Shown: positions 9,796 to 43,700 of the stretch, one piece after another
How positions within the stretch are numbered: position 1 is the stretch's first letter
Layout: every line of letters begins with the position of its first letter
Origin: an uncultured cyanobacterium
GTDB lineage: Bacteria > Cyanobacteriota > Cyanobacteriia > CAKZMO01
Assembly (NCBI GenBank): GCA_963719515.1
Contig: CAVRCJ010000015.1
Span: forward strand, 100,435-164,434
Reading direction: 5' to 3'
DNA length: 64,000 nucleotides
The notes under the pieces: model-generated
Database searches by the model: none
What the model was told of the DNA's origin: nothing
What the model saw: the letters and a program-made list of their open reading frames with translations, nothing else
Program-made: the position numbers and the translations under genes

Positions 9796-10027
9796 GGTAT
9801 TTCTCTTATGTTGCGTTCCGTAATCGGTAATGTGGAGAACCGTTTTACGGGTAGGCTGACGACATCACGATGACCAGCCAAGGGTTGCGCTAACTGCCGT
9901 CAAACGCAGCTTTTTCCTATGGCGTGAGCATAGCACCTGCGAGCAATGCGGTTTGATACGATTTGAGCAATGTTGTCTAAACCTTGTCTAAGCTGCAGCT
10001 TAGCTACTAGACAGGAAGCCCCGCGCT

Positions 10028-10210
10028 CTACCCGTCAGGGTGAGCGTCGGGATGAGAGTCGCGGTCGTCGATGGGGCTCAATGCCCCGGAGACGGCCAAA
10101 CTTCGGATGTACTCCCTAAGGACATCGTTGATAGTTCTTTCGGTCATCTCACAATACTTGTCAAGATGCTGCTTTTCTCTGTCAGCGGCTCTAATAGTTA
10201 TTTGCTGCAT
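10028..10210 (-). CDS. Small ribbon-helix-helix (CopG-like) protein inside the IS
   Basis: QITIR beta-strand followed by EKQHLDKYC and RTINDVLREYIRSL helices. Divergent from tnpB. Confidence 0.7.
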   Translation of the reverse strand: MQQITIRAADREKQHLDKYCEMTERTINDVLREYIRSLAVSGALSPIDDRDSHPDAHPDG

Positions 10211-10243
10211 GTCGTTCTGATGTCAATATGCTATCATTATTGC

Positions 10244-11440
10244 ATGAAAGTCACTTATCAGTACAAGTTGCGTCCAGCGGCTGAGCAAACGGTTACCATG
10301 ACCCGATGGCTAGATAGGCTTCGGGCACAGTACAACTGGTTGCTGGCTGAGCGATTCGACTGGTGGGAGATGAACCGCTGTTCGGTCAACGCCTGCCCAC
10401 TCACCTGTAGCCTTGCGCCACTCAAAGATAATCCTAATTACTGCAGCCAGAAGGCTAGCCTAGTACCTCTCAAGCGAGAGCGACCCTGGTACAAAGATTT
10501 GCATTCGCAGGTACTCCAGGAGGTGACGAAGCAGGTAAAGCAGACGTTCGAGCGTTTCATCAAAGGTGATAGGAATGGTAAGCGTAGCGGCAAGCCTCGG
10601 TTCAAAGGCGCGGGGCGCTACAGGACGTTCACGTTCCCGCAGATGAAACCTGACTGCATCGATGGAAGTCGTATTACCCTGCCTAAGATTGGCCAGGTGA
10701 AGCTAATCCTTCATCGCCCGATACCTGATGGGTTTACTGTCAAAACGGCCAAGGTGACTCGCAAAGCAGATGGTTGGTATGTGAGCCTGTTACTGGAAAA
10801 CAATGCCGTTCCGATGCTTACTCCGGATGTCGATAGGGCTAAGTCTGTCGGTGTTGACGTTGGGCTGAAGGATTTCTTGGTTACCAGTGACGGTGAGAGC
10901 GTTCCTATCCCTCAGTTCTTTCGACGCTCAGAGCGGCAGCTATCCAAGCTGCAGCGGCAGCTATCGAGACAGAAGAAGAGCTCTAACCGCTGGCGTAAGC
11001 AGGTGAATCGCATCGCCAAACTGCATCTGAAAATATCGCGTCAGCGTCGTGATTTCTTTTCTAAGGTGTGGGATTGGCTGTTTTCAAAGTACGATGTTGT
11101 CGCTCATGAAAAGCTCAACATCAAAGGACTTGCTCGAACCAGACTGGCAAAGTCAATCGCTGATGCCGCATGGGGTACATTCTTGGAGATAGGCTCTTTC
11201 AAAGCCGCGAAAGCTGGAAAGATGACCATCGCTGAGAACCCACGCGGAACCAGCATTGATTGCTCGGGTTGTGGTGAGCGGGTACCAAAGACGCTGGCCG
11301 ATCGGGTCCATAGTTGCCCGTCATGCGGCTTAACGATCTGTCGCGACCACAACGCGGCTATCAACCTATTGAATAGGGCTGTGGGACATCAAGCCCTTAA
11401 TCTCTCAGGAAATGTCTCAGCAGTAGCTGGGAGTCACTGA
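10244..11440 (+). CDS. tnpB: RNA-guided endonuclease TnpB
   Basis: YQYKLRP N-terminus, RuvC residues GVDVG, HEKL and RDHNAA, Zn finger CSGC/CPSC. Confidence 0.95.
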   Translation: MKVTYQYKLRPAAEQTVTMTRWLDRLRAQYNWLLAERFDWWEMNRCSVNACPLTCSLAPLKDNPNYCSQKASLVPLKRERPWYKDLHSQVLQEVTKQVKQTFERFIKGDRNGKRSGKPRFKGAGRYRTFTFPQMKPDCIDGSRITLPKIGQVKLILHRPIPDGFTVKTAKVTRKADGWYVSLLLENNAVPMLTPDVDRAKSVGVDVGLKDFLVTSDGESVPIPQFFRRSERQLSKLQRQLSRQKKSSNRWRKQVNRIAKLHLKISRQRRDFFSKVWDWLFSKYDVVAHEKLNIKGLARTRLAKSIADAAWGTFLEIGSFKAAKAGKMTIAENPRGTSIDCSGCGERVPKTLADRVHSCPSCGLTICRDHNAAINLLNRAVGHQALNLSGNVSAVAGSH

Positions 11441-11482
11441 GGAAGCCCGCGCTGTATGCGTAGCATCAGCGTCGGGAGGATG

Positions 11483-14400
11483 TCACGCCGACCCATCGAC
11501 GACGCGCTTCAGCGCTATCCAAAATCGGCTCCCTTGCCCCAGCACTGACTCGACGCCTACCCGGCCGCCCATGCGCTGGACGCCCCGCTTAACGATAGAT
11601 AGCCCAATCCCGGTGCCGGCATAGACCTCAGCGCTGTGCAGTCGCTCGAAGGGTTTGAAGATGCGCGCTTGATGTCGGGGGGAAATGCCAATGCCGTTGT
11701 CCTCAACCCAGATCCGCACGTACTGTACATCTGTCTCGCAATCCCTCGACGCTGTGGGAACATCAGCCCAGATTTTAATCTGCGGCAGCGTGCCCGGTTC
11801 AACAAACTTCAAAGCGTTGCGAATCAGGTTGTTTAGCACTTGCTCTACGACGCTGCGCTGAACGTAAACCATGGGAAAGTCTTGGCCAACTTCAACCGTA
11901 GCTTGAGCGACCCGTAAAGTGGGCTCTAGAGCAATTAAGACTCTCTTCACGACAATACCTGCATCAACACGCTGCAGATGAATCTCAGACCGCCCTAGGC
12001 GACTGTAGTTCAGCAGGTCTTGAATCAGCGTATCTAAAGTCTCAGCAGAGGTGGCCATGCGGCGGATATACTCGTGGCCTAAATCATCAAGCGCAGAGCC
12101 GTAGTCTTCTTCCAACACTCGCGCAAAGCCTTGAATCGCCCGTAATGGCGCCCGCAAGTCATGGGCAACGGAGTATGAAAAAGATTCTAGCTCCAGATTG
12201 GCTTCCTCTAGCTTCTCAGTCCGCTCCTGCACACGCTGCTCTAGAGTGATGTTGAGCTCGTGAAGCTTCTGCTCACCCCGATTGCGGACAATCGCCGCTG
12301 CCAGGCAGTTGGTGACCGCCTGCAAAAAATTAACGTCATCTTGAGTAAAGTCTTGAAGTCGGCGGGAATGCACGCCTAAGATGCCGAAGGGCCCCTCATT
12401 CCCTCCAATAATGGTGCTCATGCCGCTAATGACCTGGTGCTCAATGAGCAGGTCCGGTCCGGTAAATCGAGGCTCCCTGCGCAGATCCTTGACCACGACG
12501 GGATGTTGAGATGAGAGCGTGTAGCCTGCTTGGGAGTCCCCCTCGCTGCTAACTGTCGCCTTGCCGACGAGACCAGGCTGCCAGCCTACGCCAGATCTCA
12601 GCAGCAGCGCCTGGCCATCGGGCAATAGCTCGAGCACTTTGCAGTAGTCTACGTCTAGGCTAGCCGCAAGCATCTGAGTTGCTTGATCAAACAGCGCGTC
12701 TAAACTCAGTCCCGATAGCGCGGTCTGACTCAGCTGTGCGACAACCGCCTGCTGCTCTAGGCGACTGGCAAGCGATGCCTCGGCCTGCTTCTGCGCTGTC
12801 ACATCGGCAGCCATGGAAATCACGAGCCTGGCGCCACTATCAATTTGGCCTAGAGGCGCTGAGCTAAACAGCCAGGTCCGCCGCTCGCCGCCCTTAGTTC
12901 TCACCTCAAATTCGCCTTCATCAACCCGTCGGTTAAGGTCATAGAGGCGATTGATCCAGTCCAAAACGTCGCTTTGCTGTTCACCGTAGGCCCGCTCTGT
13001 CCAGTCGCTCAAGGTCTGTAGCTCGCTGGCCTCATATCCCGTAATGTCGGTTACCGTTCGGCTCAACCGAAAGATTTCCCCGTCTTCCCCGTGAATGATG
13101 ATGGGGAAAGGGGCTTCGGTGACCGCCCGCCGAAATCTCGCTTCGCTCTCCCTCAGCTTTGCCTCTGCCTGCTCGCGCTCCCCAATCTCCTGCTGCGCCT
13201 GCTGATAGAGCATGGCCTGCTGAACAACTAGGCTAATCTGCGTTGAAAGCTGCTTTAAAGATTTGATTTCAAGCGGCTGCCACTCGCGAGGCGCTCTGCA
13301 GTGATGGGCAATGAGCAGTCCCCAGACCTCAGTGCCCTGCAAGATGGGGACAACCAAGTTCGCTTTGACCTGCAGTGACGCTAGAAAATCGACGTAGCAC
13401 GGGGTAAGCTCACCGCTGTGAATATCGGGAATGACTTGCAGCTGTCCGGACTTGTATTGCTTAATATAGCTGGCCGACAGGCAGGGATCGCAGAACGGCA
13501 GGCTTTGGAGAGAATTCCACTGGGCATCCACCGATTCAGACAGGACAACGCCATCGTCGGGCGTCTGAAGCTGAAAGATGACGACCCGATCGGTCTGCAG
13601 GAACGCTCGCACTTTACTCACGGCGCTCTGCAGCAGTTGGCTCAGGTCTAACAGCGGCAGATCGCTGCCCCCAACGGACCATCTCCGAATCAATTGAGTG
13701 ATCTCCATCGCTAGCCGCTCAGACTCCAGCATCCGGTAGCGCTCGATATCAGCTTGCTTAGACGGCGTGATATCAGCGACCGTACCCAGCATCCGCCCCA
13801 TCGGGCGATCGCCATCGGGGTAAAATCGACCCTTACTGCTGAGCCAGTGGATAGAGCCGTCTGCCCAAACGGTGCGAAACTCTATATCGCACTGGGTTTG
13901 GTTTTGCAGAGACCGCCGGACAGCCTGCTGCAGGGCGGCACGGTCTTCTGCATGCACCCGCTTTAAAAGTGCGCGGTAGGTAGACAGCACCTCTCCATCA
14001 GTTAGCCCCAAGAATGTGCTGGCCTGCCCCGAGTAGAGCAGTCCGCCGCTTGAGCGCCACTCCCAGGCGCCCATTTGGGACGCGTCCAAGGCAAGCCACA
14101 GACGCTCGTTACTTTGCCAAAGCTGCCGTTGCAGGTTTACCTTCTCGACGGCCTGCTCGATGCTGCGCTGTAGCGATAGCGGCGTAATTTGACCCTTAAC
14201 TAAATAATCTTCTGCCCCCGCTTTGAGCGTCTGCGCGGCTAGGAATTCGTTTCCCTGACCGGTGATCATGATTAGCGCGGGCATTTGGTCTTTCAGCTGT
14301 ACTTTGAGTTCAGTCAAGAACTCCAGTCCGTCACAGTCGGGTAGACTGTAGTCCAGCAGCACCACATCAGGTTGAGCCTGCTGGCACAGCGCCAGCCCTA

Positions 14401-14524
14401 GCTCGCCCAGATCTGCCTCAATGATCGTACAGTCTAGCTTCGTATTCCGCTTCAGGTAGCGACGATAGGCGTCGCGATCCGCCTCGCTGTCTTCTACAAT
14501 TAGAATTGTGAGCGGTTTGGTCAT
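11483..14524 (-). CDS. Hybrid kinase REC-PAS-GAF(cyanobacteriochrome-like)-PAS-GAF-HisKA-HATPase
   Basis: IVEDS receiver. GAF with DRVVIF, DPCL, PCY and ANLVVPIL...WGLLIAHHC. AHDLRAPL H-box and GTGIGL. Confidence 0.92.
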   Translation of the reverse strand: MTKPLTILIVEDSEADRDAYRRYLKRNTKLDCTIIEADLGELGLALCQQAQPDVVLLDYSLPDCDGLEFLTELKVQLKDQMPALIMITGQGNEFLAAQTLKAGAEDYLVKGQITPLSLQRSIEQAVEKVNLQRQLWQSNERLWLALDASQMGAWEWRSSGGLLYSGQASTFLGLTDGEVLSTYRALLKRVHAEDRAALQQAVRRSLQNQTQCDIEFRTVWADGSIHWLSSKGRFYPDGDRPMGRMLGTVADITPSKQADIERYRMLESERLAMEITQLIRRWSVGGSDLPLLDLSQLLQSAVSKVRAFLQTDRVVIFQLQTPDDGVVLSESVDAQWNSLQSLPFCDPCLSASYIKQYKSGQLQVIPDIHSGELTPCYVDFLASLQVKANLVVPILQGTEVWGLLIAHHCRAPREWQPLEIKSLKQLSTQISLVVQQAMLYQQAQQEIGEREQAEAKLRESEARFRRAVTEAPFPIIIHGEDGEIFRLSRTVTDITGYEASELQTLSDWTERAYGEQQSDVLDWINRLYDLNRRVDEGEFEVRTKGGERRTWLFSSAPLGQIDSGARLVISMAADVTAQKQAEASLASRLEQQAVVAQLSQTALSGLSLDALFDQATQMLAASLDVDYCKVLELLPDGQALLLRSGVGWQPGLVGKATVSSEGDSQAGYTLSSQHPVVVKDLRREPRFTGPDLLIEHQVISGMSTIIGGNEGPFGILGVHSRRLQDFTQDDVNFLQAVTNCLAAAIVRNRGEQKLHELNITLEQRVQERTEKLEEANLELESFSYSVAHDLRAPLRAIQGFARVLEEDYGSALDDLGHEYIRRMATSAETLDTLIQDLLNYSRLGRSEIHLQRVDAGIVVKRVLIALEPTLRVAQATVEVGQDFPMVYVQRSVVEQVLNNLIRNALKFVEPGTLPQIKIWADVPTASRDCETDVQYVRIWVEDNGIGISPRHQARIFKPFERLHSAEVYAGTGIGLSIVKRGVQRMGGRVGVESVLGQGSRFWIALKRVVDGSA

Positions 14525-14771
14525 AAGTTCACAGACCTATAGGAAGACCTGCTGTATGGGCAAAGTCACATTGCGCCTAATACCGTAATCTTAAACGAAT
14601 CTCTAGATAGGGTTAGGCCTGACCTACGAAACTGGGTACGACACAGCAGAATTATGGCTGAGGCGTCTTTAGGGCTGTAACGCGGCAGCGCAGCACGCTC
14701 TCGCTGGCGGACGGGCTCGGCCCGCAGCGGCTTAAGTCTCGGAATTCTTTTCCTTCAGCGCGGGGAATGTG

Positions 14772-16985
14772 TCAATTGGGGCCATCTTCACAAAGCTCTA
14801 CCCGATTTCGCCCTTTAGCTTTGGCCCGGTACAGCGCCGCATCCGCCCGCCGCAGCGCCTCATTGATGGTGTCGCCAGACTGCACGGTCCCCACCCCAAC
14901 GCTGACCGTCACCTGCCTTTGCTGACCGGGTTTAACCGGCAGCGCTGCCACCAGCTGCCTAAAAGACTCCGCCGTAGACAGGGCCTCTGACAGCGGCGTG
15001 CGGTAGAGGAGTAGCGCAAATTCCTCGCCCCCCAGCCGCCCCAAAAGCCCCTTGTCCCCCAGGCTCAACGTGCAAATGTGAGCCACCTGCTGAATGACGC
15101 GATCGCCCTTGGCATGGCCAAACCGGTCATTGATGCGCTTGAAATGGTCAATGTCCAGCATTAGGGTTGCCATTGGCCAATACTGCGATTTTGGGCTGGC
15201 GATCGCGATTTCCGCCTGCTCAAAAAAAGCGCGTCGATTGTATACCCCAGTCAGCGGGTCAGTACTAGCGAGATAGCGTAAAGCGCTTTCGCGCTGAATT
15301 TGCGCCGAGATATCGCTAAAAGAAAACAGGACGCAGGGCCGGTGATTGTAGTTAATTTCTAGCCCCGAAATCAGTGACCAAAACTCCTCATTTCCCTTGC
15401 GCAGCGACGCTTCAAATCCCGTCACCCGCCCCAGCTGGTTTATCTGGGTCAAAAATGTGGCGCGATCGCCTAGGCTAAACCAAAAATCAGTTTCTCGGTA
15501 GCGCCCCGTTTCCTGCAGCGTGAAGCCGAACAGCTCTGCTGCCCGCTCATTGATGAAGTGGATGGTGCCATCTCTAACATCGCTAATGGCCATCGGAAAT
15601 ACAGGAGCATTTAAGATGTCCTGTAAGCGCCCCCGACTGTCGTTTAATTCAGCCTTGACCTGGCTCATCTTTTCCAGCACGCGGTTGTAATAGTCGGCAA
15701 TAGAAGCTACCTCTGTCCCCGGCTCAACCACAACGGGTTGGGTAAAGTCTCCCCTCAGGGAATGGGCGTTCATGCTGGCGATCAGGTCCTGTGTGGCGGT
15801 ACTAGCGTTGTGCTCAGCAATATTGAGGCCGATGCGCTCTTGCGCTGCCGTGACGCGCAGGGGCAAGACCTGATTGATGCCCCACAGCAGCGCATAGCTC
15901 ACGCCAAAAGCGTAAATCCCGACGGCAATGACCCCTACAGTCTGAACCCCCAGCATTCGCCAAACGCTGTCAGTTTCCCGCAGCATCGGGTCTGCGAATA
16001 GCGCCACCGCTAAGGTGCCCCAAATGCCGCACACGAGATGAGCGGGGACAACTCCCACGGCGTCATCAATTTTGGCATAGCTGAGCCAGCGGGCAGACAG
16101 CGTACACAACAGTCCGCCAATCCCGCCTACGCAGGTCGCCCCCAGGGTCAGCATAATATCGCAACCCGCCGTCACCGACACCAGTCCCCCCACCACCCCA
16201 TTCATAATCAGCGGCACCTGGGGACGCTTGTGGATTGCCCAGGTTGTCAACAGCGCCGCCAGTCCGCCTGCGGCTCCGCCCTGAGCGGTATTCACCAGGA
16301 TCATGGGAACCTGGTCGTCAAACCCAAAGCTGCTGCCGCCGTTAAAGCCAAACCAGCCAAACCACAGCAAAAACACGCCCAAAACGGCAGTCGGCAAGTT
16401 GTGGCCCTCAATGCTGTGAGACTTAGGGCCAAAGCGACCTAGCCTCGGGCCGATGACGAGAATGGCCGCTAGCGCCGTCCAGCCCCCCACCGAATGGACC
16501 ACTGTCGACCCGGCGAAATCGTGGAACTGGAGTTTCCCTAGCCAGCCCGGCGAGGAGTCAAACCACAGCCCTGCCCAGACCCAATGTCCCGTGATCGGGT
16601 AGACGAACAGAGCAATGATAATTGCCGTGATGAAATAGCCCAAAAAGCTCATCCGTTCAGCTACGGCCCCGGACACAATGGTAGTCGCGGTGCCGCAAAA
16701 AACGAGTTCAAACAGGAAAAAGCTGTAGTCTGCGTTTGTCCAAGTCAGCGTAGAGGGAAGCCGATTACCCACGAGGCCGAAGACCGTCTCACCAAACATG
16801 AGCTGAAAGCTAATCAGCGAGAACACCAGGGACGTAATACAAAAATCGACCAGATTCTTGATAGCAACGTTGATGCTGTTCTTAGCCCGCACCAACCCGC
16901 TCTCTAAACAGCAGAACCCGGCCTGCATTGTGCTCACGAGTATGGCGCAAAGAATGACCCAAATTACATCGAGGCTGGGTGCCAT
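14772..16985 (-). CDS. Ammonium transporter-PAS-diguanylate cyclase fusion
   Basis: Amt motifs MQAGF..LESG, DFAGSTVVH, WFGWFGFNGGS, IDDAV...PAH. C-terminal DPLTG, DIDHFK and GGEEF. Confidence 0.92.
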   Translation of the reverse strand: MAPSLDVIWVILCAILVSTMQAGFCCLESGLVRAKNSINVAIKNLVDFCITSLVFSLISFQLMFGETVFGLVGNRLPSTLTWTNADYSFFLFELVFCGTATTIVSGAVAERMSFLGYFITAIIIALFVYPITGHWVWAGLWFDSSPGWLGKLQFHDFAGSTVVHSVGGWTALAAILVIGPRLGRFGPKSHSIEGHNLPTAVLGVFLLWFGWFGFNGGSSFGFDDQVPMILVNTAQGGAAGGLAALLTTWAIHKRPQVPLIMNGVVGGLVSVTAGCDIMLTLGATCVGGIGGLLCTLSARWLSYAKIDDAVGVVPAHLVCGIWGTLAVALFADPMLRETDSVWRMLGVQTVGVIAVGIYAFGVSYALLWGINQVLPLRVTAAQERIGLNIAEHNASTATQDLIASMNAHSLRGDFTQPVVVEPGTEVASIADYYNRVLEKMSQVKAELNDSRGRLQDILNAPVFPMAISDVRDGTIHFINERAAELFGFTLQETGRYRETDFWFSLGDRATFLTQINQLGRVTGFEASLRKGNEEFWSLISGLEINYNHRPCVLFSFSDISAQIQRESALRYLASTDPLTGVYNRRAFFEQAEIAIASPKSQYWPMATLMLDIDHFKRINDRFGHAKGDRVIQQVAHICTLSLGDKGLLGRLGGEEFALLLYRTPLSEALSTAESFRQLVAALPVKPGQQRQVTVSVGVGTVQSGDTINEALRRADAALYRAKAKGRNRVELCEDGPN

Positions 16986-17114
16986 AAGGCAGTATTAACC
17001 GTTAAGCCATGTCGATTGTAGCCGTTCAAAGTCTGTGGAAAACTTAATCAGGCGGGATTACAGGAGCAGGGCGGTAAAATCGTTGTAATCCTTGCCTTAG
17101 TCGCTGTCGTACTC

Positions 17115-17906
17115 ATGACTCTTCAACCCTTACATTTGCTTGGCGTCCCCCCCAACGCCTGGATTGTCAACGCCGACAACGCCGACATTACGCGATCGCC
17201 CATCCCGCCTCAGCCCGCTACCCTCGCTACCCGCACTAAAACCCTCACCATCGACCTAGCCAAAACGATTATTTTGGTCATCGATATGCAAAACGACTTT
17301 TGTCATCCCGAGGGCTGGCTAGCCCACATCGGCATGGATATTACCCCCGCGCAAGCTCCCGTTGCCCCCTTAAATCGCCTCCTTCCCGAGCTGCGCCGCG
17401 CCAAGGTGCCTGTCCTCTGGCTCAACTGGGGAAACCGCCCTGATTTAGTCAACATCAGCGCCGGACAGCGCCACGTCTACAATCCAACGGGGGAGGGGGT
17501 AGGGTTGGCGGAGCCGCTGCCGCCGCGCAACGCCCCCGTATTGACTAAAGACAGCTGGGGGGCGGCTATCGTGGATGAACTGAGGCCCGAGCCGATCGAT
17601 ATTCGCATCGACAAATATCGGATGAGCGGCTTTTGGGACACGCCACTGGACAGCGTACTGCGCAACCTTGGAAAGACAACCCTGTTGTTTGCTGGGGTCA
17701 ATGCGGATCAGTGCGTCATGGCCACCCTACAGGACGCCAGCTTCCACGGCTACGACTGCATTTTGGTAGAAGACTGCACCGCTACCACCTCGCCAGACTA
17801 TTGCCTCCAGGCCACCCTCTACAACGTCAGTCAGTGCTTCGGGTTTGTAGCCAGTTCTGATGCGATCGCTGCAGCGATCCCCGAGGTGTCTTCAGAGCTA
17901 GTCTAA
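17115..17906 (+). CDS. Isochorismatase-family cysteine hydrolase
   Basis: D-K-C triad in IDMQNDF, DKYRMSGF and GVNADQCV. Confidence 0.88.
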   Translation: MTLQPLHLLGVPPNAWIVNADNADITRSPIPPQPATLATRTKTLTIDLAKTIILVIDMQNDFCHPEGWLAHIGMDITPAQAPVAPLNRLLPELRRAKVPVLWLNWGNRPDLVNISAGQRHVYNPTGEGVGLAEPLPPRNAPVLTKDSWGAAIVDELRPEPIDIRIDKYRMSGFWDTPLDSVLRNLGKTTLLFAGVNADQCVMATLQDASFHGYDCILVEDCTATTSPDYCLQATLYNVSQCFGFVASSDAIAAAIPEVSSELV

Positions 17907-17974
17907 ACCTTTGCTAAAGTTCTGCCCCATTTCGGGAGATGTCTGGTGTATTAGAGGTAGCTACTGGCTGTTAG

Positions 17975-18423
17975 CTAGTTCGTGAAAGCCCCGCGCTGTA
18001 TGCGCAGCATCAGCGTCGGGATGTAAGCGAGCGAGTCGAGGTGCGCCCTTGACTGGATGCCGAAGGCGGCAATTAAGGGCAGCGCCGAGGCGAGCAAAGG
18101 GTACAATTGAACCAAGCTCAAACTATTTCATGGCGGCGGCCTGCTATCCTGACACAAACGTACAGCCCTTAGCTGGTGAACAGTGCAGACGGTAGAAAAC
18201 GTAGCTGGAAATTGAATACTCGTCACTGTCTGGGGTTGGTCATTGCCTGGACATTAAACAAATCGCCTGTCGATGGGATCTAATCGGGGTTGCACGGCTT
18301 GCTGCGTAACTAGACAGGACCAGATGAAGCAGGAAACCTTCTTGCGCGGCATCCATTAAATTGTGGTGCGTGAGCCAAGAAGCCCACGCTCTATCTAAAA
18401 GATGAGCGTCGGGAGTATGTCAC
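17975..18423 (+). mobile_element. ORF-less IS200/IS605 mini-element (TTAG/TCAC type), 449 bp
   Basis: TTAG at 17971-17974, left hairpin gccccgcgctgtatgcgcagcatcagcgtcggga, right hairpin gaagcccacgct...agcgtcggga, terminal TCAC 18420-18423. Confidence 0.82.
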
Positions 18424-18486
18424 GTCCTACCACACAGCCTCGCCATACCGTCTCGCAGTACACCTTCGTCATTACCAGGAGTCACC

Positions 18487-19014: not shown

Positions 19015-19015
19015 C

Positions 19016-20650: not shown

Positions 20651-20654
20651 TTCC

Positions 20655-21420: not shown

Positions 21421-21474
21421 AAAAAAAAATCCCCAGCTATGAAAGCCGGGGATTGGAATCAGGGTGCATCTACC
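21421..21474 (-). ncRNA. Candidate small RNA with intrinsic terminator
   Basis: Minus strand reads GGTAGATGCACCCTGATTCC, then hairpin ATCCCCGGCT-ttcat-AGCTGGGGAT and a T9 tract. No minus-strand gene lies upstream to terminate. Confidence 0.5.
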
Positions 21475-21547
21475 ATTCCTATCTACGCGGTTATGCTAGT
21501 CTGTCAGGACTGCTTTTATAAATTCCGTCAATATCGTGAGTCCCCTC

Positions 21548-24435: not shown

Positions 24436-25401
24436 ATGACCACATCTATGCCAAACCCTAACCTCAGCGTCCATCACACCATCCATTCCCACCAGTCTCA
24501 CTGCGGCTGGGACCATTCCCTGCCGCCGCAGCTGACGATCGCCCCCGGCGAAACGGTGGAGATGGAGCTTAACGACGCCTCGGGGGGGCAGCTTACCCTA
24601 GACTCCACCGTGGCGGATGTCGACGCCTTCGACTTTGGCCGCACTAATCCGGTCACCGGCCCCATCTATATCGAGGGGGCTGAGCCGGGGGATGTGGTGA
24701 AGCTATTTATCCAGAACTTCAGCCCCTCCGGCTGGGGCTGGACCGCCATCTTCCCCGACTTCGGCCTGCTGGCGGACCAGTTCCCCGACACCGCTCTGCA
24801 GCTCTGGCGCTACGACGTAACGGCTAAGGGGGCGATCGCCGAAGGTCTGAGCGCCCGGATCCCCCTGAAGCCTTTCGCGGGCACCATCGGTCTGGCCCTG
24901 GCGGAACCGGGTCACCACAGCGTGGTGCCGCCCCGGCGGGTAGGGGGCAACATGGACATCCGCGACCTGTCTTCGGGCAGCACACTGTACCTGCCGGTGG
25001 AGGTGGCCGGGGCGCTGCTCTCCATCGGCGACAGCCACGCGGCCCAGGGAGATGGAGAGGTGTGCGGCACGGCCATCGAGAGCCCGATGACGGCGGTGTT
25101 CACTATAGACCTGCTCAAAGACCACCCGATAAAATACCCCCACTTCGAGACCGCCGGTCCCGTCACCCGCCACCTAGACGCCAAGGGCTACTACGTCACC
25201 ACGGGCATCGCCCCCGATTTGATGATCGCTACCCGGGAGGCGGTGATGGCCATGATCGACTGGTTGGGTAAGGCCCACCAGATGGACGCCGCTGAAGCTT
25301 ACATGCTGTGCAGCGTCTGCGCCGACCTGAGGGTCAGCGAAATTGTAGACAAGCCCAACTGGGTGATGTCCTGCTATTTGCCCAAAATCGTGTTTGAGTG
25401 A
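24436..25401 (+). CDS. Acetamidase/formamidase family protein
   Basis: NPVTGPIYIEGAEPGD, GGNMD and GDSHAAQGDGEVCGTAIE. Confidence 0.92.
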   Translation: MTTSMPNPNLSVHHTIHSHQSHCGWDHSLPPQLTIAPGETVEMELNDASGGQLTLDSTVADVDAFDFGRTNPVTGPIYIEGAEPGDVVKLFIQNFSPSGWGWTAIFPDFGLLADQFPDTALQLWRYDVTAKGAIAEGLSARIPLKPFAGTIGLALAEPGHHSVVPPRRVGGNMDIRDLSSGSTLYLPVEVAGALLSIGDSHAAQGDGEVCGTAIESPMTAVFTIDLLKDHPIKYPHFETAGPVTRHLDAKGYYVTTGIAPDLMIATREAVMAMIDWLGKAHQMDAAEAYMLCSVCADLRVSEIVDKPNWVMSCYLPKIVFE

Positions 25402-25789
25402 CATCCTCCCGACGCTGACAGCAAGCTGTACAGCGCGGGCTTCCTCAGTGACTCCCAGCTATTGCCGAGACATATCCTGAGATAGGTTTATACTCCGCCT
25501 GATGCCCCACGGCAGAGTTTTGAATTTTCATCTCCGCGAGGGAGGATACGCACTATGTGTCGCAGATACATTTGCAAACTGAGGAACGGGTGACTTGCAG
25601 CTTTCGCCTACGGGCCCGTCACACTCTTTGCGGGGTGTATCACCTTGCTATCTCTATCATACCAACTGCTAGCCTCAGCGCTGAGCGCACTATCCGCTGT
25701 GCATCATTTTGCGGGCGCACTTCGGCTAGCGCGACTCTCATCCCGACGCTCACCCTGACGGGTAGAGCGCGGGGCTTCCTGTCTAGTCG
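25398..25789 (-). mobile_element. ORF-less mini-element with ends of the 10004-11486 TnpB element, 392 bp
   Basis: First ~60 nt are nearly identical to 10004-10062. Last ~120 nt are homologous to the tnpB 3' end/right end through ggatgTCAC. CTAA (=TTAG) at 25790-25793. Confidence 0.9.
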
Positions 25790-30374: not shown

Positions 30375-30410
30375 TCTTACAGCGCTTGCGCTTAAGCAGC
30401 AACTGCTTTT

Positions 30411-30442
30411 TGCTCCTGGCCAGCCGGTCAGGAGCAGTTTTT
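30411..30442 (+). terminator. Intrinsic terminator after csbD
   Basis: tgctcctggcc-agcc-ggtcaggagca followed by a T tract. Confidence 0.75.
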
Positions 30443-30444
30443 AT

Positions 30445-30858
30445 AGGAAACGCCGTAAAACCCATCCACTTTAGCGGTGGGATATAAGGCGGTGAGCGTA
30501 GCAAACATATGCAAAACCCTTGCTGTGACTGGGATTTGCTATAGTAAAGGCGGTCAATGACCCACCCGAGACGCAGACGTAACAGACAGCCTAACGTGAC
30601 GAAATCGGCAATCAGCTGATGGCGCGGAAAGCTCGGTAGACCGGGAAAAGAGGATAGGGCAACGGAAACGACCCTAGAATCAACAATCGACATAGAATTC
30701 CTTGAATTCAACAAAGAAGAACCGCAGGGCTTGCGGGGATAGTCTGTGGAGCGATCGTAAGACCGGAAAGGTTTAGGCCTCGAAGGTAGATGCTACGAAG
30801 CAGAAAAATCTTGGAGCAATCCAAGAATCCCACGTGCTTTAGCCGTGGGAGTAGTCAA
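30445..30858 (+). mobile_element. ORF-less mini-element with ends of the 42343-43700 TnpB element, 414 bp
   Basis: TTAT at 30441-30444. Left end cgccgtaaaacccatcc..tttagcggtggg..ggtgagcgtagc and right end gctacgaagcagaaaa..tcttggagcaatccaagaatcccacg..ctttagccgtgggagtagTCAA match the full element. Confidence 0.9.
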
Positions 30859-31108
30859 AGCGCCCTTCTTCAACTCCAATCTGACCCAAGCTATTCAGAC
30901 CCCTATTGCCATGCCGGAATCAACCCCTGCTTCTAACGCTCCCCAGGCCGACGATCCTCAAAAGACCGCTGGACCCGCCGCACCTACAGATGCCGCTGTT
31001 CCTTCGCCCGACAGTCTACCTGCCGATACTGACGCCCCATCGCCCACCGGAGACATCAGCAACGACCCGCCCGGGGCTCGCCCTGCTCCGTAGGCTCGCA
31101 GCGAGACC

Positions 31109-31771: not shown

Positions 31772-31779
31772 GGCGTCAG

Positions 31780-32746: not shown

Positions 32747-32758
32747 GTCAGTCTCTCC

Positions 32759-37176: not shown

Positions 37177-37357
37177 CCTCTTAAGTGAAACAGTGGACAG
37201 GAACTTCAGATACTTGACACCCTCGTAGTGCTTTAGACCAGACTGTGAGCCAACGGTGTATCAACGGGCGGCTGTAGCCCTCGCAAGTGACCCATGGGCG
37301 CGATCGCCGCCTTATGACGGCAACTGCGACGCTAAGGGAAAGGTAAGTACCCTATAC

Positions 37358-37373
37358 ATAGAGATAAGTCTAT
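37358..37373. promoter_or_regulatory. ATAG-N8-CTAT box (NdhR/CcmR-type) upstream of bicA
   Basis: ATAGagataagtCTAT. Confidence 0.7.
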
Positions 37374-37607
37374 CAAAGTCTAATCAACCATTGACTGAAG
37401 TCTAGCCTAAAACCTAGATAAGCCTACTTTCTCATAAGGTTAGTTTTTCTAATAGTTAGGTAAAGCGAAACTTATCGTTAACGATAGCGGCTATGGTAGC
37501 AATAAATATTGTTAAGGTTGTCCGCAATATCTTTCCATAGGACGGAAATAGACTCTACACCTAAACTTAATGGTTAACCGTGGTGTAATCTTTTCGAGCG
37601 AGGAATT

Positions 37608-39545
37608 ATGGCCAAAGGAAAAGAAGATAAGCCTCTACAGGGGGGAAAAGGACCTTATCTGCTGTCTATAGAGGAAATTCCATCCAAGAATAGCTCTGAA
37701 GGTCAAGACCGTAAACGGCGCGCATACTTCGTGGGCAGTACGGCACCTAACAACGTCGAAAAAGGGGTCAATTATGTTGACTCCCCAGAGGATTGGATTA
37801 AAGATATTGCTAAAGCTCTGAGTCCCGAAAATCCTCAAGAGGCTGAAGAGGCTAAAAAGCAGCCTGAACTTCTCATTGCGATCCATGGCTACAACAACGC
37901 TGTGGGAACCTTTAAGTCAAAAGAGGGTAAAACAGGAGGAGAAGGCAAAAAAAAGGGTAGAGGGGTAAAGGGGTGGTACCACGATATCGGCGATCATATT
38001 GATCAGCATTGCCCAGAGCGCTCTGATAAATTTGTGCTGATCGGCTATCGGTGGCCCTCTGAGCAAATCAAGGGCATCAACCACGAATCATTCGGTAACG
38101 ACACGCTAGGGGCTAAGCTCAACTACGCCCGCCAGTCGCTGCCTGTAGCGCTAAAGGTGGTTGCGGCAGGGACGATCGCGGCTTTAGTGGGCCTGACGCT
38201 GAGCGCGTTGGCGACGAACTGGCCAGGGAGTCTAGCGTTCGGCATTATTGGCGTCATCACTATCGTTGCCGCGACGATAACGCTCTCCATTGTTTTGACG
38301 CTATTTTTGCTGAGAATTGCAGGCTATTTTCGAGACTCTTACCGGGCGACTAACTTTGGCATCACGGACTTGGTTGAGCTGCTTCGACAAATCGATAAAG
38401 CCGTCCTTGAGGCAACCTCTCAAAAGGCCGAAAGCGATTACTGGGAGAGGCCAGAGAACCGCATTAAGATCTCATTTATCGGCCACAGCATGGGCGGGTT
38501 TGTGGTGACCAACACCGTCCGCATTTTGTCAGACCTCTTCAAAAAAGATTCCGTCGGAACCCTCAAGCTTTCGTCAGACGCCCCTACCGACCCAGAGAAA
38601 AAAGTTAGTGAAGAGAAAAACCCCGATAGGCTTGTCGGTAACGTCTTTTCTTTGAGTCGCCTTGTTCTCGTTGCTCCCGATATTCCTGCTGAGACCCTTA
38701 TCTTGGGCCGCGCCAACTTCCTCAAATCCTCGCTTCGGCGATTTGAAGAAGCCTACCTTTTTAGCAACGAAGGGGATATGGCCCTAAAGCTGGCCTCTAC
38801 AGCAGCGAACTACGCCAGCTTTCCCGCCCGCACCCGTGAGGGCGGCTACCGGTTGGGCAATGTCGTGGTGCGACTGCCCAAAGGTCCATCTAACCCAACT
38901 TATGGCATCGTCAACCTAGCTGACTTGGAAGGGAGAACACCGGCGAAGCATTTCTTAAAATATCTATTTATCTTGCCATACACATCGCTATTCGATCGTC
39001 AAAAGCAGGTAAACCCTCTAGCTGAAGAGAAGCCGCAGAGCGAGGAAACGGAACACATTGCCGAGCTGTTCACCGTCTTCGACTGTACAGACTACTACGA
39101 ACTCGATAAGGATAAACCAACGAAGCGGGTCGGCATGCTGAGCCACGCCCTAGGCAAGCGATCGCTCAGCTTCCTCGACTACGTCTGGCTCACCCGCGCC
39201 TACTTCGCCGGAAAAATTGATACCCACGGCGGATACTTTTCAGCGGCGGATGTGGAGGGTTTTGGCTCTGAGGAACGACCCCGCCCTGAAGCCGAGCTTA
39301 CAAAGCACCTAATCTACGGCTTGGCCTCCCTTGGATTTGAGTCGCTGCTAGAGTCACCCCGGTTTATTCAGCTCTCAGAAACTACGTCTGACGCCTGCGG
39401 GGAAGGGGCTGCCTCTGAAACACCCGCCGCAATCCAGAAGCTATCGCAAATCTGCTGCGATCGCCAGATTCAGGTACTGCTCGCCCCCAAACGCTATCGG
39501 GAATGCACTGCTGAGCAGGGTGGTAATAAGGAGTATTCAGCCTAG
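37608..39545 (+). CDS. Alpha/beta hydrolase (DUF900-like) with internal TM hairpin
   Basis: IHGYNN, YRWPS, nucleophile GHSMG, LVAPDI and SNEGD.AL. Confidence 0.78.
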   Translation: MAKGKEDKPLQGGKGPYLLSIEEIPSKNSSEGQDRKRRAYFVGSTAPNNVEKGVNYVDSPEDWIKDIAKALSPENPQEAEEAKKQPELLIAIHGYNNAVGTFKSKEGKTGGEGKKKGRGVKGWYHDIGDHIDQHCPERSDKFVLIGYRWPSEQIKGINHESFGNDTLGAKLNYARQSLPVALKVVAAGTIAALVGLTLSALATNWPGSLAFGIIGVITIVAATITLSIVLTLFLLRIAGYFRDSYRATNFGITDLVELLRQIDKAVLEATSQKAESDYWERPENRIKISFIGHSMGGFVVTNTVRILSDLFKKDSVGTLKLSSDAPTDPEKKVSEEKNPDRLVGNVFSLSRLVLVAPDIPAETLILGRANFLKSSLRRFEEAYLFSNEGDMALKLASTAANYASFPARTREGGYRLGNVVVRLPKGPSNPTYGIVNLADLEGRTPAKHFLKYLFILPYTSLFDRQKQVNPLAEEKPQSEETEHIAELFTVFDCTDYYELDKDKPTKRVGMLSHALGKRSLSFLDYVWLTRAYFAGKIDTHGGYFSAADVEGFGSEERPRPEAELTKHLIYGLASLGFESLLESPRFIQLSETTSDACGEGAASETPAAIQKLSQICCDRQIQVLLAPKRYRECTAEQGGNKEYSA

Positions 39546-39547
39546 CG

Positions 39548-41380
39548 CTAGTAATGCGTTCCCGACTTGCGGTGATGCACGGCGGTCTTCACGTCCGCCT
39601 CTATCACCTCGCCTCGGTCCACTGTGGAATACACCACCCAGTGGTCACCGCACTCCATACGGCTTTTCACCCGGCATTCCAGGTAAGCCGATGCCCCGGC
39701 CAAAATAGGGCAGCCGTTCTCTCCCACCTTCGTTTCTACGCCGGCAAACCGGTCTTCCCCTGGCCCAAAGGGCTTCAGGAAATGCTTCATCAGGGGAATG
39801 TAGGCCCCCTCGGGCAAAATATTCAGCACAAAGTGGCTGTCGGGGTACATCAAAGACTCGATGGCCCGCTCCTTAGCCACCGACACCGTAAAGCCTGGCG
39901 GCGCAAACGTTGCCTGTGACACCCAAGAGGCCAACATGGCGCTGGACACGTCGTTTTGCTGAGTTGTGACAATGCATAGAGAGCCGACGATGCGACCGAC
40001 GGCCTGTTCGGTGGGCGCGATGGTGGACACCCCCGGCTTAGCGGTGAGCTGGGTTGCCTTCTTGCGCTTGCGGGCCTTTTTAATCGCCTGCACTAGATCT
40101 GTGCCGGCCTCCTCGCAGGTCTTGAGGGTGGCGTCGGTGGGGGTGAACTTGACGCGGATGGGGTCGAACGCGAAGGCGTATCCGGCGTCCTTGAGCTTGT
40201 CTTCCAGGTAGTCGATCGCCTCTCCGCTCCAGCCAAAAGAGCCAAAGACGCCCACGTACTTTTCGTTGGGAACGTTAGAGAGCATGACGCCCAGAGCCGT
40301 CTGCACCTGGGTGGGGGCGTGGCCGCCCAGCGTGGGCGATCCGATAATAAAGCCGTCGCACTGCTGGGCCACCGCCTTAATTTCGTCAGGGCTGGCCACC
40401 TCGCAGTTGATGGACTCCACGCGGCTGCCGGTTTTGGTTACCCCTCGGGCGATCGCCTGGGCTAGGGTCGCCGTGTTGCCGTAGGCGGAGGCGTAGAGCA
40501 GCGCCACCGACAGCTCTCGGCCCTGCTGCTTTTGACTCCACTGTCGGTAGGCGTTGGTGAGTTCGGTGACGCCAAAGCGCACTAAAGGGCCATGGCCCGT
40601 GGCGTACAGCCGCACGGGGGAGACCTCCGACAGCTTTTCCAGCACGGTCTGCACCTGGCGGGCGTGAGGAGCCATTAGGCAGTCGAAGTAGTAGCGGCGA
40701 TCGTCCTGCAGGGCTTCCCAGCCCTCGTCAAAGACAGCCTCGCCGCAGACGTGAGTCCCGAAGAACTTATCGGTGTAGAGCACCTGGGTTTGCGGGTCGT
40801 AGGTGGCGAGGGCGTCCGGGTAACGGGACATGGGAATAGGCACAAACTTGAGGCGGTGTCCCTGACCGAGGTCTAGGGTGTCGTCAGCGCCCTTGAGCAC
40901 CTTGAGGTTGAGGGCGTGGTCCGGCAGGGCCGACTTGAGGGCGATCGCCGCCGGGTTGGAGCAGGCAATGGTGACGTTGGGGGCGATCGCTAAGATTGCC
41001 TTGAGGGTTTCGGCGCGGTTGGGGTTGACGTGGCCCAGGATGATGTAGTCGAGCTGGGTGAGGTCTAAGGGATTCACTTCTGGAGCGCGGTATTCCTGCA
41101 CCACCCAGCGCAGCTGCGCCCACAGGTCGCTCCACATAGGCAGTTTAGCTTCAGCCTCTTGGGCAGGGGACTGCAGCGCACCCAGAAAACTCTCGGTGAA
41201 GGACTGGCCTGGGGGGTCTATGAGAGCGGTTTTGTCGGCGCGAATTAGATAGCTGTTGGCGGTGGTGCCTTTCTCACGGGCGTATTCGATCTCAAACCGC
41301 AGGCGGTTCCAGCTGCGGGAGCGATATACCGTCGTGTTGGCGGCGATTGGGGCGATTTGGACGTCGCGGGGAGTGTTCAT
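39548..41380 (-). CDS. flv1: Flavodiiron protein, Flv1/Flv2 class
   Basis: RSWNRLRFEIEY, non-canonical HVNPNR, flavodoxin SAYGNT and a C-terminal flavin reductase domain. Confidence 0.8.
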   Translation of the reverse strand: MNTPRDVQIAPIAANTTVYRSRSWNRLRFEIEYAREKGTTANSYLIRADKTALIDPPGQSFTESFLGALQSPAQEAEAKLPMWSDLWAQLRWVVQEYRAPEVNPLDLTQLDYIILGHVNPNRAETLKAILAIAPNVTIACSNPAAIALKSALPDHALNLKVLKGADDTLDLGQGHRLKFVPIPMSRYPDALATYDPQTQVLYTDKFFGTHVCGEAVFDEGWEALQDDRRYYFDCLMAPHARQVQTVLEKLSEVSPVRLYATGHGPLVRFGVTELTNAYRQWSQKQQGRELSVALLYASAYGNTATLAQAIARGVTKTGSRVESINCEVASPDEIKAVAQQCDGFIIGSPTLGGHAPTQVQTALGVMLSNVPNEKYVGVFGSFGWSGEAIDYLEDKLKDAGYAFAFDPIRVKFTPTDATLKTCEEAGTDLVQAIKKARKRKKATQLTAKPGVSTIAPTEQAVGRIVGSLCIVTTQQNDVSSAMLASWVSQATFAPPGFTVSVAKERAIESLMYPDSHFVLNILPEGAYIPLMKHFLKPFGPGEDRFAGVETKVGENGCPILAGASAYLECRVKSRMECGDHWVVYSTVDRGEVIEADVKTAVHHRKSGTHY

Positions 41381-41821
41381 GGGTTTTAAGGTAAGCGCTT
41401 GACAGGTCTCAAGGCCCCCTACGCCCCAACCCTTTGAGGGACCAGGCTACAGGATAAAATTCCTGCCGGTACATATTAGCGTAAGGTCTTTTCTCTGTGA
41501 CCAAGCGAATGGACAAAACAGCAAAGCCTTGATCCTCAAAACACACCACTGGTGAGTGAAAGAAGATGTAGCGATCGTACTACATTAGTGAGCCAGATCT
41601 GCGCCCTCTGCGATGGTGTTGGCGTAGTCTCGCTTGCGGAGACAGCCATTCCTTCGCAAAGCGTCTTCGCAAGCGTTAGGGAGAATCGTGTGATCGAAAA
41701 AGCGCCGCGCATAAGGCCTGCTTATGGGATAGGCCTGCAATTGTGAGGCAACCTTTCGTCAAAAGACCGCCCACAGGTGAAGCGATCGCATAAACTAAAT
41801 ACTATGGTATTCGATGAAAGC

Positions 41822-41837
41822 ATAGAGTTTTGACTAT
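41822..41837. promoter_or_regulatory. ATAG-N8-CTAT box (NdhR/CcmR-type)
   Basis: ATAGagttttgaCTAT, between flv1 and the 80-aa gene. Confidence 0.62.
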
Positions 41838-42079
41838 ATACTGAATTTGGCTAACTCAAAGCTGTGCCCCTGTTTTCGAACATGCGACATCTAACCTGTG
41901 CAGCCACCTGATGGGCGCTGTACAGGTTAGATGTTCTAGGCTCCGCGTGGAGCGTGGAGCTAGAACGCCACTTATTTAACCAGCCTTTTTGCTGTAATAG
42001 GTGGTTCTTGAGCAAGTATTCCGTGTGATACAGCCATCGCCCTGTTAACGATACATACGATAGGTATGGAGTGAAGATC

Positions 42080-42322
42080 ATGAATAAGTTTGAATCGAAG
42101 CAGTCGCAATCTAAGCTGAATACTGATGAAGGCTGGGCCGTGCAGATATATGGCAGCAACCGCCGCTTGCTCTGTGTCTTAGAACCTTCTCACGGCTGGA
42201 TTTTTCTAGCGGGCTGTTGTGCGGGTTTGTTGTTGTCAATTATTTGGTTTAACGCAGCCCGCTATAGTTCTCCGGGCAAACCGATCGCCCCAACCGAATC
42301 TCCGGCATTCCAGGTAGATTAG
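42080..42322 (+). CDS. 80-aa single-TM protein upstream of sbtAB
   Basis: GGAG upstream of the ATG. WAVQIY...RRLLC.LEPSH.W followed by a hydrophobic helix. Confidence 0.7.
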   Translation: MNKFESKQSQSKLNTDEGWAVQIYGSNRRLLCVLEPSHGWIFLAGCCAGLLLSIIWFNAARYSSPGKPIAPTESPAFQVD

Positions 42323-42342
42323 GGCACCGTACTGCGAAGAAG

Positions 42343-43700
42343 TTGACTACTCCCACGGCTAAAGCGCGTGGGATTCTTGGATTGCTCCAAGACTTTTCTG
42401 CTTCGTAGCACCTGCCTTCCGAGATTTGCTCTCCATGCGCGAAGCGCAGGCTTCGCCAACGGGTCTTACGGTCGCTCCACAGACTGACACCGCTAGACCC
42501 GCGGCCAATACGTTTACAGCAGCGTTTACGTCTCTATCATGCTTCACTTCGCACTCAGGGCACTGCCACCCTCGAATATTCAGCGGCAGCTTATCTACAA
42601 CGTGACCGCAGCTGCCACAGCGCTTAGAGCTGGGGAACCAGCGGTCTATCTTGACGAGCTCCCGCCCGTACCATTCGCACTTGTAGGTAAGCTGCCGCAC
42701 CAGCTCACCCCAACTCGCATCACTGATAGCCTGCGCCAGTTTGTGGTTTTTCACCATGTTCCCCGCTGCTAAGTCCTCGACGGCGATCGCTTGGTTTTCG
42801 CGCACCAGCCGGGTTGTCAGCTTGTGTTCGCGAAGCGTCCCGAAGGGAAGCAGGTCTTTGCGGGCATTGGCTATCTCGGCGTGGACCCTAGCCACCCTGA
42901 GCCGCGCTTTGTATCGGTTGTTCGAGTCCTCTTGCTTCCGGCTGAGCGCCTTTTGAGCTTTCCTCAGCTTGCGGTACTTGGCCTTGAAGCCCTTGGGGTT
43001 AGCCATCTTCTCACCTGTGCTCAGCGTGAGCAGACTGGTGATGCCCATGTCTAGCCTAACTTTGTTAGGAGATTGCGGCAGGGGCTCAATCTCTACCTCC
43101 ACCAACAGCGACACAAACCAGCGTCCTGCAGGCGTCAGCTTCACCGTGATGGTCGATGGTGCGGCATCTTTCGGGAGCTGGCGCGACCACCTAATCGGCA
43201 ATGGCCCGCAGCACTTAGCTAGGTAAACTTGACCGCCCTTAAACTTGAATGCCGCCTTGGTAAACTCCGCGCTGCCGCCGTTGCGCTTCTTTTTGAAGTT
43301 GGGATACTTAGCCCGACCGGCGAAGAAGTTAGTGAAGGCGGTCTGCAGATGTCTCAGCCCCTGTTGAAGGGGAACCGAGCTAACCTCAGTAAGAAATTCA
43401 AGGCCCTCCTCTTTTTTCCACTGGGTCAGCATCGACGAGGTTTGAGCGTAGCCGACGCCCTCTTGCTTCTGGTACCAGGCCTCAGTCCTTGCCGCCAAAG
43501 CGCGGTTGTAGACCAGGCGAGTACACCCCATTGTCCAGCGCAAGAGCAACTCTTGCTCAGCAGTAGGATAGAAGCGGTAGCGGTAAGCCTTTTGAACCAT
43601 ACTTACAGTCTAAGACTCGCCGTGTAAAGTATGAATATGTTCGCTACGCTCACCGCTTTATACCCCACCGCTAAAGCGGATGGGTTTTACGGCGACCTCT
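42343..43700 (-). mobile_element. IS200/IS605-family tnpB-only element (TTAT/TCAA type)
   Basis: ATAA (=TTAT) at 43701-43704, subterminal hairpins, and TTGA (=TCAA) at 42343-42346. Confidence 0.9.
42359..43600 (-). CDS. tnpB: RNA-guided endonuclease TnpB
   Basis: AYRYRFYPT, RuvC residues LDMG, VEDL and DRDVNAA, Zn finger CGSC/CPEC. Confidence 0.95.
   Translation of the reverse strand: MVQKAYRYRFYPTAEQELLLRWTMGCTRLVYNRALAARTEAWYQKQEGVGYAQTSSMLTQWKKEEGLEFLTEVSSVPLQQGLRHLQTAFTNFFAGRAKYPNFKKKRNGGSAEFTKAAFKFKGGQVYLAKCCGPLPIRWSRQLPKDAAPSTITVKLTPAGRWFVSLLVEVEIEPLPQSPNKVRLDMGITSLLTLSTGEKMANPKGFKAKYRKLRKAQKALSRKQEDSNNRYKARLRVARVHAEIANARKDLLPFGTLREHKLTTRLVRENQAIAVEDLAAGNMVKNHKLAQAISDASWGELVRQLTYKCEWYGRELVKIDRWFPSSKRCGSCGHVVDKLPLNIRGWQCPECEVKHDRDVNAAVNVLAAGLAVSVCGATVRPVGEACASRMESKSRKAGATKQKSLGAIQESHAL

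Follow-up and report, generated by a model that had tools for sequence, protein, structure and literature searches.

Gene-less IS200/IS605-type elements as candidate stand-alone omegaRNA genes alongside TnpB elements in a cyanobacterial genome

Two TnpB elements and three short elements without any protein gene were identified in a 64,000-nucleotide stretch of DNA from an uncultured cyanobacterium. This stretch, here called the window, corresponds to positions 100435-164434 of contig C15 (CAVRCJ010000015.1) in a genome assembly of 5.28 Mb and 21 contigs (GCA_963719515.1). The short elements (M1, M2 and M3, hereafter the minis) are considered here as candidate genes for omegaRNA, the guide RNA of the TnpB nuclease. 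The two TnpB elements, T1 and T2, are IS200/IS605 elements that lack tnpA. T1 lies at 10004-11486 on the plus strand, follows TTAG at 10000-10003, has the right end ..ATGTCAC and contains tnpB at 10244-11440 (398 aa). T2 lies at 42343-43700 on the minus strand, follows TTAT (the reverse complement of 43701-43704), ends in ..TCAA and contains tnpB at 42359-43600 (413 aa). Both elements have subterminal hairpins at both ends, and the flanks of their copies differ and show no target repeat, which indicates that insertion occurs without target duplication.

The proteins encoded by T1 and T2 (TnpB1 and TnpB2) contain the Pfam domains HTH_OrfB_IS605, OrfB_IS605 and Cas12f1-like TNB above cut-off, and match the ISDra2 TnpB chains 8bf8/8exa/8h1j with E values of 3.5e-42 and 2e-72, respectively. 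The RuvC acidic positions of both proteins align with the reference D, E and D in alignments judged by eye. The intact RuvC triad that a preliminary description of this DNA had attributed to both proteins therefore agrees with the domain matches and with the ISDra2 alignments. TnpB2 (42359-43600, minus strand) carries a 7-residue insertion relative to 9yyg_A, the top-listed solved TnpB-like chain.

The three minis are of the type of palindrome-associated transposable elements (PATEs). M1 (449 bp) occupies 17975-18423 on the plus strand and M2 (392 bp) occupies 25398-25789 on the minus strand, both with TTAG/TCAC ends, and M3 (414 bp) occupies 30445-30858 on the plus strand with TTAT/TCAA ends. 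A common layout is proposed for all three: a left-end hairpin, a short spacer with a -10 box, a structured RNA gene of 250-310 nt and a right-end hairpin. The -10 boxes are TACAAT at 18102-18107 in M1, TGGTATGAT at 25656-25664 in M2 and TGCTATAGT at 30537-30545 in M3. In M1 the omegaRNA-like 3' module spans about 18224-18423. M2 contains a stretch homologous to the tnpB 3' end at 25448-25612 and an omegaRNA 3' module at 25398-25539, both on the minus strand. M3 contains a conserved RNA block at 30552-30858 on the plus strand, in which a 5' domain (about 30552-30721) is followed by a T2-like 3' module (30722-30858). The guides predicted in the right flanks are 18424-18439 for M1, 25382-25397 for M2 and 30859-30874 for M3. 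The corresponding omegaRNA 3' module of T1 lies at 11352-11486 on the plus strand, with one helix (A) inside the tnpB coding sequence, a second helix (B) with an inner hairpin, the right-end hairpin and a predicted guide at 11487-11502. The coordinates and end types of all five elements, and the positions of the three -10 boxes, were found by direct reading of the sequence to be as first described. Each mini is interpreted here as a probable promoter-driven, stand-alone omegaRNA-like gene that would be mobilised by a Y1 transposase (TnpA) and read by its cognate TnpB, both acting in trans, and this interpretation is given a probability of roughly 60%.

The copies of the five elements in the genome were counted under two cut-offs, namely at least 85% of the length, and at least 90% for both identity and length. 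T1 has 16 copies under either cut-off, and TTAG precedes the left end in 15 of the 16. M1 has 19 copies under the first cut-off (one of them 68.5% identical) and 18 under the second, 17 of which follow TTAG. M2 has 53 copies under both cut-offs (96.5-100% identical), all of which follow TTAG, extended to TTTAG in 47; the right flanks of the 53 copies are all distinct. M3 has four copies under both cut-offs, each of which follows TTAT, and a truncated fifth copy on contig C20. T2 has nine copies under the first cut-off (87-100% identical) and six under the second, with TTAT before five of the six. M2 thus outnumbers T1, its TnpB element (53 copies versus 16-17).

M1 is absent from the orthologous intergenic site in all three congeners in which both flanks were found (G002, G003 and G004), and M3 is absent from the corresponding site in G002. 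In these congeners, intergenic sequence has diverged too far for empty sites to be defined to the base. M3 sits within the run of Ts of a strong terminator hairpin (30410-30437, plus strand), and its TTAT belongs to this run. In G002, the same terminator hairpin is followed by TTTTTGTTG and no element is present. The minis contain no protein gene, have IS605-like near-terminal palindromes, lack inverted terminal repeats and target duplication, are present in multiple copies and differ in their insertions between related genomes. M1, M2 and M3 are mobile, non-autonomous PATE-type derivatives of IS200/IS605 elements that insert 3' of TTAG or TTAT.

Copy number and the presence of a tnpA elsewhere in the genome had been raised as points to be settled, and the genome proved to hold many copies of the minis, 14 matches to the Y1 transposase family PF01797 and intact tnpB genes. 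Three Y1 tnpA genes lie beside T1-type tnpB genes within T1-like ends (C10:312171-313974, C5:98444-100227 and C1:303800-305604), and these loci are regarded as autonomous versions of T1. In total, 85 TnpB-like loci in at least five sequence families are found genome-wide. TnpB1 residues 1-398 are matched without a stop at 17 places in the genome, a 416-aa tnpB frame is present in four T2 copies, and intact tnpB genes of the T2 type and of a third type (T3) are present. The census, the tnpA and tnpB copies and the absence of the minis from congener sites together indicate that the minis are mobile and that TnpA and TnpB are on hand in trans. A T1 copy with a 98%-identical TnpB (L069) is also found on a contig filed under a metagenome bin of Rubricoccaceae, which are not cyanobacteria; this could be due to mis-binning or to recent transfer.

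The minis share 64-72 nt with the TnpB elements at the left end versus 135-215 nt at the right end, and the ends of the two kinds of element are 81-97% identical. M2 shares 116 nt with T1 at 80% identity, and nucleotides 178-342 of M2 translate at 42% identity to TnpB1 residues 346-398 (blastx, E = 1e-6). The last 137-162 nt of M3 also occur in T2 (75% identity over the last 162 and 95% over the last 77), and M3 lacks one 25-nt hairpin that is also missing from some T2 copies. In blastx, M2 and M3 matched nothing but tnpB C-terminal remnants, and M1 gave no match. The left ends of M1 and T3 share 97% identity. T3 encodes a TnpB about 37% identical to TnpB1, and its loci lie outside the window, elsewhere in the genome. 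The last 170-200 nt of M1 align block-wise to T3-type 3' ends. The left end and the 200-nt 3' module of M1 recur in two further families of minis. One of these, M4, has a different interior, and the other is a 68% relative of M1. T1 was also considered as the partner of M1 and rejected; the likeness is at hairpin level only (a 32-nt match between the M1 left end and the T1 right end), and the ends and module of M1 are those of T3. The minis had been paired with the two TnpB elements of the window by end type; the end motifs are indeed common to them, but the partner of M1 is T3, outside the window, and not T1. At the level of sequence homology, the scaffolds are shown to be cognate as M2 to T1, M3 to T2 and M1 to T3, from which we infer that each mini is compatible with the TnpB of that type.

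The length of the retained right part is also informative. A 52-bp PATE that consists of termini only has been reported as probably still mobile (PMC3119063), so the long right part of the minis seems to be more than transposition needs. The view that the minis are not simple deletion scars, put forward in the preliminary description, is supported by the retention of the 3' module in all of them, seen in covariance-model matches, blastx and alignments, and by the covariation of paired positions. Alignment of mini interiors to decayed tnpB coding sequence had been named as evidence to the contrary, but it is not valid as such because the omegaRNA overlaps the tnpB 3' end.

The structure of the 3' module was derived from an alignment of 13 TnpB-linked 3' ends (T1, seven ends with a TnpB 69-81% identical and five with a TnpB 55-60% identical). 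Four helices are present: A in the tnpB coding sequence, B and its inner hairpin, and C, which is the right-end hairpin; 92.8% of the cells are paired. Among the 27 pairs, 17 are changed on both sides, compared with 8.3 +/- 1.8 in shuffled alignments (0/500 reach 17) and 2-7 in slid controls. A covariance model built from these 13 TnpB-linked ends alone matches M2 over the whole model (113.8 bits, E = 9e-27), an M2-type mini of the congener G002 (105.6 bits), a mini of another genus in G008 (82.8 bits) and M1 at 18324-18423 (37.1 bits, E = 2e-7). Helix A of the minis is lengthened to 7-9 pairs, with sequences that differ between M2 and G008 (alignments judged by eye). This stem, freed from the coding constraint, was retained and strengthened rather than lost. 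A MAFFT alignment that included the minis was left out of the pair counts, as the 3' arm of helix A was misplaced in it.

A search for the interior of M2 across the class gave only short helix-A matches in other genera, and its 5' part is confined to the genus. At gathering thresholds, Rfam detects only tRNA and NsiR1 in the whole window, and at E <= 1 over 10000-44000 no match falls inside the elements. A focused scan with RAGATH-18 (RF03064), a motif of TnpB-associated right-end RNA (reRNA; PMC11061315), gave no match in M2. In M3 and M1, it gave sense-strand, whole-model matches within the 3' modules, but these are sub-threshold and the modules are non-members by the Rfam criterion.

The putative -10 boxes were compared among copies and relatives. 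Of the 53 M2 copies, 52 have the box TGGTATGAT and the remaining one has TGGTATACT; TGCTATACT is found in G002 and TGGTATAAT in G004, and the mini of G008 has a box, TGATATAAT, about 20 nt further on. The box of M3 is TGCTATAGT in the window copy and TGCTATAAT in four other aligned copies, one of which is the truncated copy on C20. In the M3 family as a whole, a TAnnnT box is located 7-8 nt upstream of the conserved block in 14 of 15 loci, is preceded by TG in eight, and the sequence farther upstream is not conserved. The box column of M1 reads TACAAT in M1, TAGAAT in the 68% relative and TATGCT in G111. The alignments thus show that diverged relatives retain a -10-like box at a constant position. 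The extended -10 pattern TGNTANNNT occurs 52 times in the 128,000 strand positions of the window, and this rarity makes a correctly placed box in both M2 and M3 unlikely by chance.

The interior of M3 was searched in 301 genomes of the class, of which 21 match, 12 besides the present genome at E <= 1e-15. Most BLAST alignments in other genera start at query position 13, which is window position 30552; this is the start that had been predicted earlier, 7 nt after the -10 hexamer. A module of about 310 nt, terminating in ..GTCAA, is common to the 15 M3-type loci. No TnpB1- or TnpB2-like frame is found within 1.5 kb of any of the 14 M3-like loci outside this genome, and none of the 51 frames of at least 130 aa around M3-like loci has a TnpB or Y1 Pfam match, the neighbours being housekeeping genes. 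In an alignment of 13 M3 sequences, 94.5% of the cells are paired and 17 of 55 pairs are changed on both sides, compared with 9.9 +/- 1.9 in shuffled alignments (0/500 reach 17) and 4-6 in slid controls. The co-varying helices include helices 4, 7 and 8 of the 5' domain, about 170 nt long, which has no homologue in T2. As judged from these alignments, M3 represents an old lineage without genes that has an additional 5' domain, rather than a recent derivative of T2. A close T2-type TnpB (best E <= 1e-130) is present in nine of the 12 genomes with the M3 5' domain versus 31 of 288 others (Fisher p = 9e-7, uncorrected for kinship). M1-type modules were likewise found in 12 of the 301 genomes, including other families, and 11 of the 12 outside loci have no TnpB1-, TnpB2- or TnpB3-like frame nearby.

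In this genome, the hairpin that precedes the right end has two versions, fully compensated and GNRA-capped, and each of them is found in both M3 and T2 copies. The occurrence of the same two versions in both kinds of element suggests that sequences have been exchanged between minis and TnpB elements. The T2 copies also vary in the presence of the 25-nt hairpin mentioned above. Two M3-like modules in G040 (L105/L139 and L122/L157) directly adjoin ends of T1-type elements; the -10-like box of one module derives partly from a T1-type right end, and the other module is shortened by an inverted T1-type end. At L136:1941-2558 (plus strand), a frame with MerR-HTH and resolvase domains lies about 240 nt from an M3-like module, and we take it to be an IS607-type TnpA (serine transposase).

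Each predicted guide matches its own flank only. None of the 97 right-flank guides has a transposon-associated motif (TAM) with a 12-nt seed match elsewhere in the genome, and extra 12-mer matches of the M2 guides (26 of 53) are at the estimated chance level. The earlier proposal that the minis give each nuclease several guides, in the sense of a wider target range, fits these counts less well than retention and homing of the mini itself. The likely beneficiary would accordingly be the mini, via homing to its own site.

In the proposed mechanism, the RNA would be made from the element's own promoter and extend across the right end into 16-20 nt of the flank, and the cognate TnpB would bind this RNA in trans. 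A Y1 TnpA, also in trans, would excise the mini, and the rejoined empty site (TAM and flank) would then be cut and repaired from a sister copy. This follows the model of retention by homing after excision in PMC10055086. The minis would thus act as guide-only parasites of TnpB and TnpA elements. A further reading of M3 is put forward only tentatively and is judged rather improbable: its type would be an old, independent guide-only lineage, in which an RNA gene of about 310 nt with its own promoter occurs nuclease-free in many cyanobacterial families. The 5' domain, which TnpB-linked omegaRNAs lack, would add an ability such as out-competing the guide of the TnpB element (hyperparasitism), RNA stabilisation or processing, or a task unrelated to TnpB.

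Several observations weigh against the interpretation of the minis as promoter-driven omegaRNA genes, and three other explanations have to be compared with it. The minis may be plain deletion derivatives, as PATEs or miniature transposable elements with inverted repeats (MITEs), in which the omegaRNA-like part is passive or is kept for TnpA or the single-stranded DNA intermediate, the -10 boxes are irrelevant or due to chance, and no functional RNA is made. PATEs do arise through deletion of the core of IS605-type elements (PMC3119063), and the 42% identity that the interior of M2 still has to TnpB1 residues 346-398 would be expected of a decaying remnant. A strict sigma-70 scan in which a -35 box was required found four sites versus 3.6 expected, none of them a proposed box; this negative result also favours passive remnants, although a scan that demands a -35 box is uninformative for promoters that lack one. 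Among the relatives of M1, the M4 type has no canonical -10 at the aligned place. The pairs were counted on the very alignments from which the structures had been derived, and the covariation of helix C is no argument for an RNA, since this helix is the DNA hairpin that TnpA needs. Upstream of helix A, the 5' part of M2 shows one compensatory pair in three sequences. However, helices outside the TnpA hairpin keep their pairing through two-sided changes, also in gene-less copies, the whole 3' module is kept by several separate mini families, and in 14 of 15 M3-type loci from different genera the -10 box stays at a constant distance although the upstream sequence differs. Passive remnants are for these reasons considered improbable. 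Transcription by read-through only, in which the RNA module comes from transcripts of neighbouring genes or of TnpB elements and the minis have no promoter, is the least probable of the explanations and is given very little weight. TnpB-linked omegaRNAs can be cut from tnpB mRNA, and M3 directly follows the terminator of an upstream gene. On the other hand, the location of M3 downstream of a strong terminator argues against read-through, as do the conserved -10 boxes, which keep a constant spacing to the point where conservation begins, and the 53 different contexts of the 53 M2 copies.

A structured mini RNA may also exist and have a main role other than the guiding of TnpB, for example as a regulatory or antisense small RNA, in the titration or inhibition of TnpB, or as the guide of another effector, with the 5' domain of M3 as the carrier of this role. 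This explanation is unlikely, but it deserves more attention than the two preceding ones. The 170-nt 5' domain of M3 is conserved and co-varies in helices 4, 7 and 8, and T2 has no counterpart of it, so the M3 RNA may serve a purpose other than guiding TnpB. A close T2-type TnpB is missing in three of the 12 genomes with this domain, which have only distant relatives of TnpB2. The RAGATH-18 scores of M3 (30743-30806, 20.1 bits) and M1 (18266-18335, 17.4 bits) are far below the gathering threshold of 44.9 and also speak against an assignment to omegaRNA. Against a non-guide role, the 3' module and its location at the right end, beside the would-be guide, are omegaRNA-like, the domain co-occurs with a T2-type TnpB (nine of 12 versus 31 of 288 genomes), and stand-alone omegaRNAs have been reported as active in trans with effectors (PMC10691335). 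The promoter-driven omegaRNA-like gene, read by its cognate TnpB in trans, is therefore preferred.

The minis can be compared with several known systems. Stand-alone omegaRNAs that are mobilised without effector or transposase, in genomes with effector loci, have been described and shown to work in trans, where they provide extra target sites (Altae-Tran et al. 2023, PMC10691335, citing its reference 1). The minis are likewise candidate mobilised guide loci of this kind, with effector loci in the same genome: the scaffold is homologous to effector-linked omegaRNA, the guide lies outside the element and a homologous effector is encoded in the genome. They differ from the cases described there in that three families for three TnpB types are found within 13 kb; a conserved -10 box and, in M3, the 170-nt 5' domain are documented for them. 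PATEs of Geobacillus stearothermophilus "often encode omegaRNAs" that depend on TnpB supplied by other IS elements (Meers et al. 2023, PMC10055086). These PATEs and the minis are gene-less IS200/IS605 derivatives with conserved left and right ends, whereas the phylum and the end sequences of the minis are different, and M2 has 53 copies compared with 16-17 of its TnpB element.

The PATEs of Haloquadratum walsbyi are non-coding, with IS605-like near-terminal palindromes and no target duplication, and fall into homogeneous families whose insertions differ between strains (Dyall-Smith et al. 2011, PMC3119063). Among them, HqIRS71 retains part of the tnpB C-terminal region and resembles the minis in this respect. 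The H. walsbyi PATEs were described before TnpB guides were known, and many of them are terminal-only elements of 52 bp, whereas all minis keep a long RNA module. The principle has thus already been published (PMC10691335, PMC10055086), and the minis are further examples of it. A limited literature search found no description of stand-alone omegaRNAs with own promoters or a 5' extension.

T1 also contains an open reading frame of 60 aa (10028-10210, minus strand) that encodes a ribbon-helix-helix-like protein and occupies the position of tnpA in the autonomous copies. Its match to DUF6290 is weak (E = 0.0036, below cut-off). A 58%-identical homologue is present at the same position in L080, where the TnpB is only 51% identical. 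Arc-like open reading frames have been associated with TnpB (10.1101/2023.11.20.567912), and the T1 frame matches this published association. An extended -10 sequence, TGCTATCAT, is found at 10229-10237 on the plus strand; as it ends 6 nt upstream of the tnpB ATG at 10244, it suggests that the tnpB mRNA of T1 may be leaderless or near-leaderless. Elsewhere in the window, the match to NsiR1 (nitrogen stress-induced RNA 1) lies at 21422-21475 on the minus strand (63.5 bits), with a terminator-like hairpin at 21454-21428; this match agrees with a cyanobacterial origin of the DNA.

The window offers a clear example from nature of putative guide RNA genes parted from their nuclease, with three TnpB types and three gene-less families. 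The compact promoter-plus-scaffold units and the 5' domain of M3 are test objects for the engineering of omegaRNA. Should the RNAs be active, the majority of TnpB guides in this genome would come from elements that encode nothing else, and this would bear on the spread of TnpB systems and on the start of a CRISPR-like separation of guide and effector.

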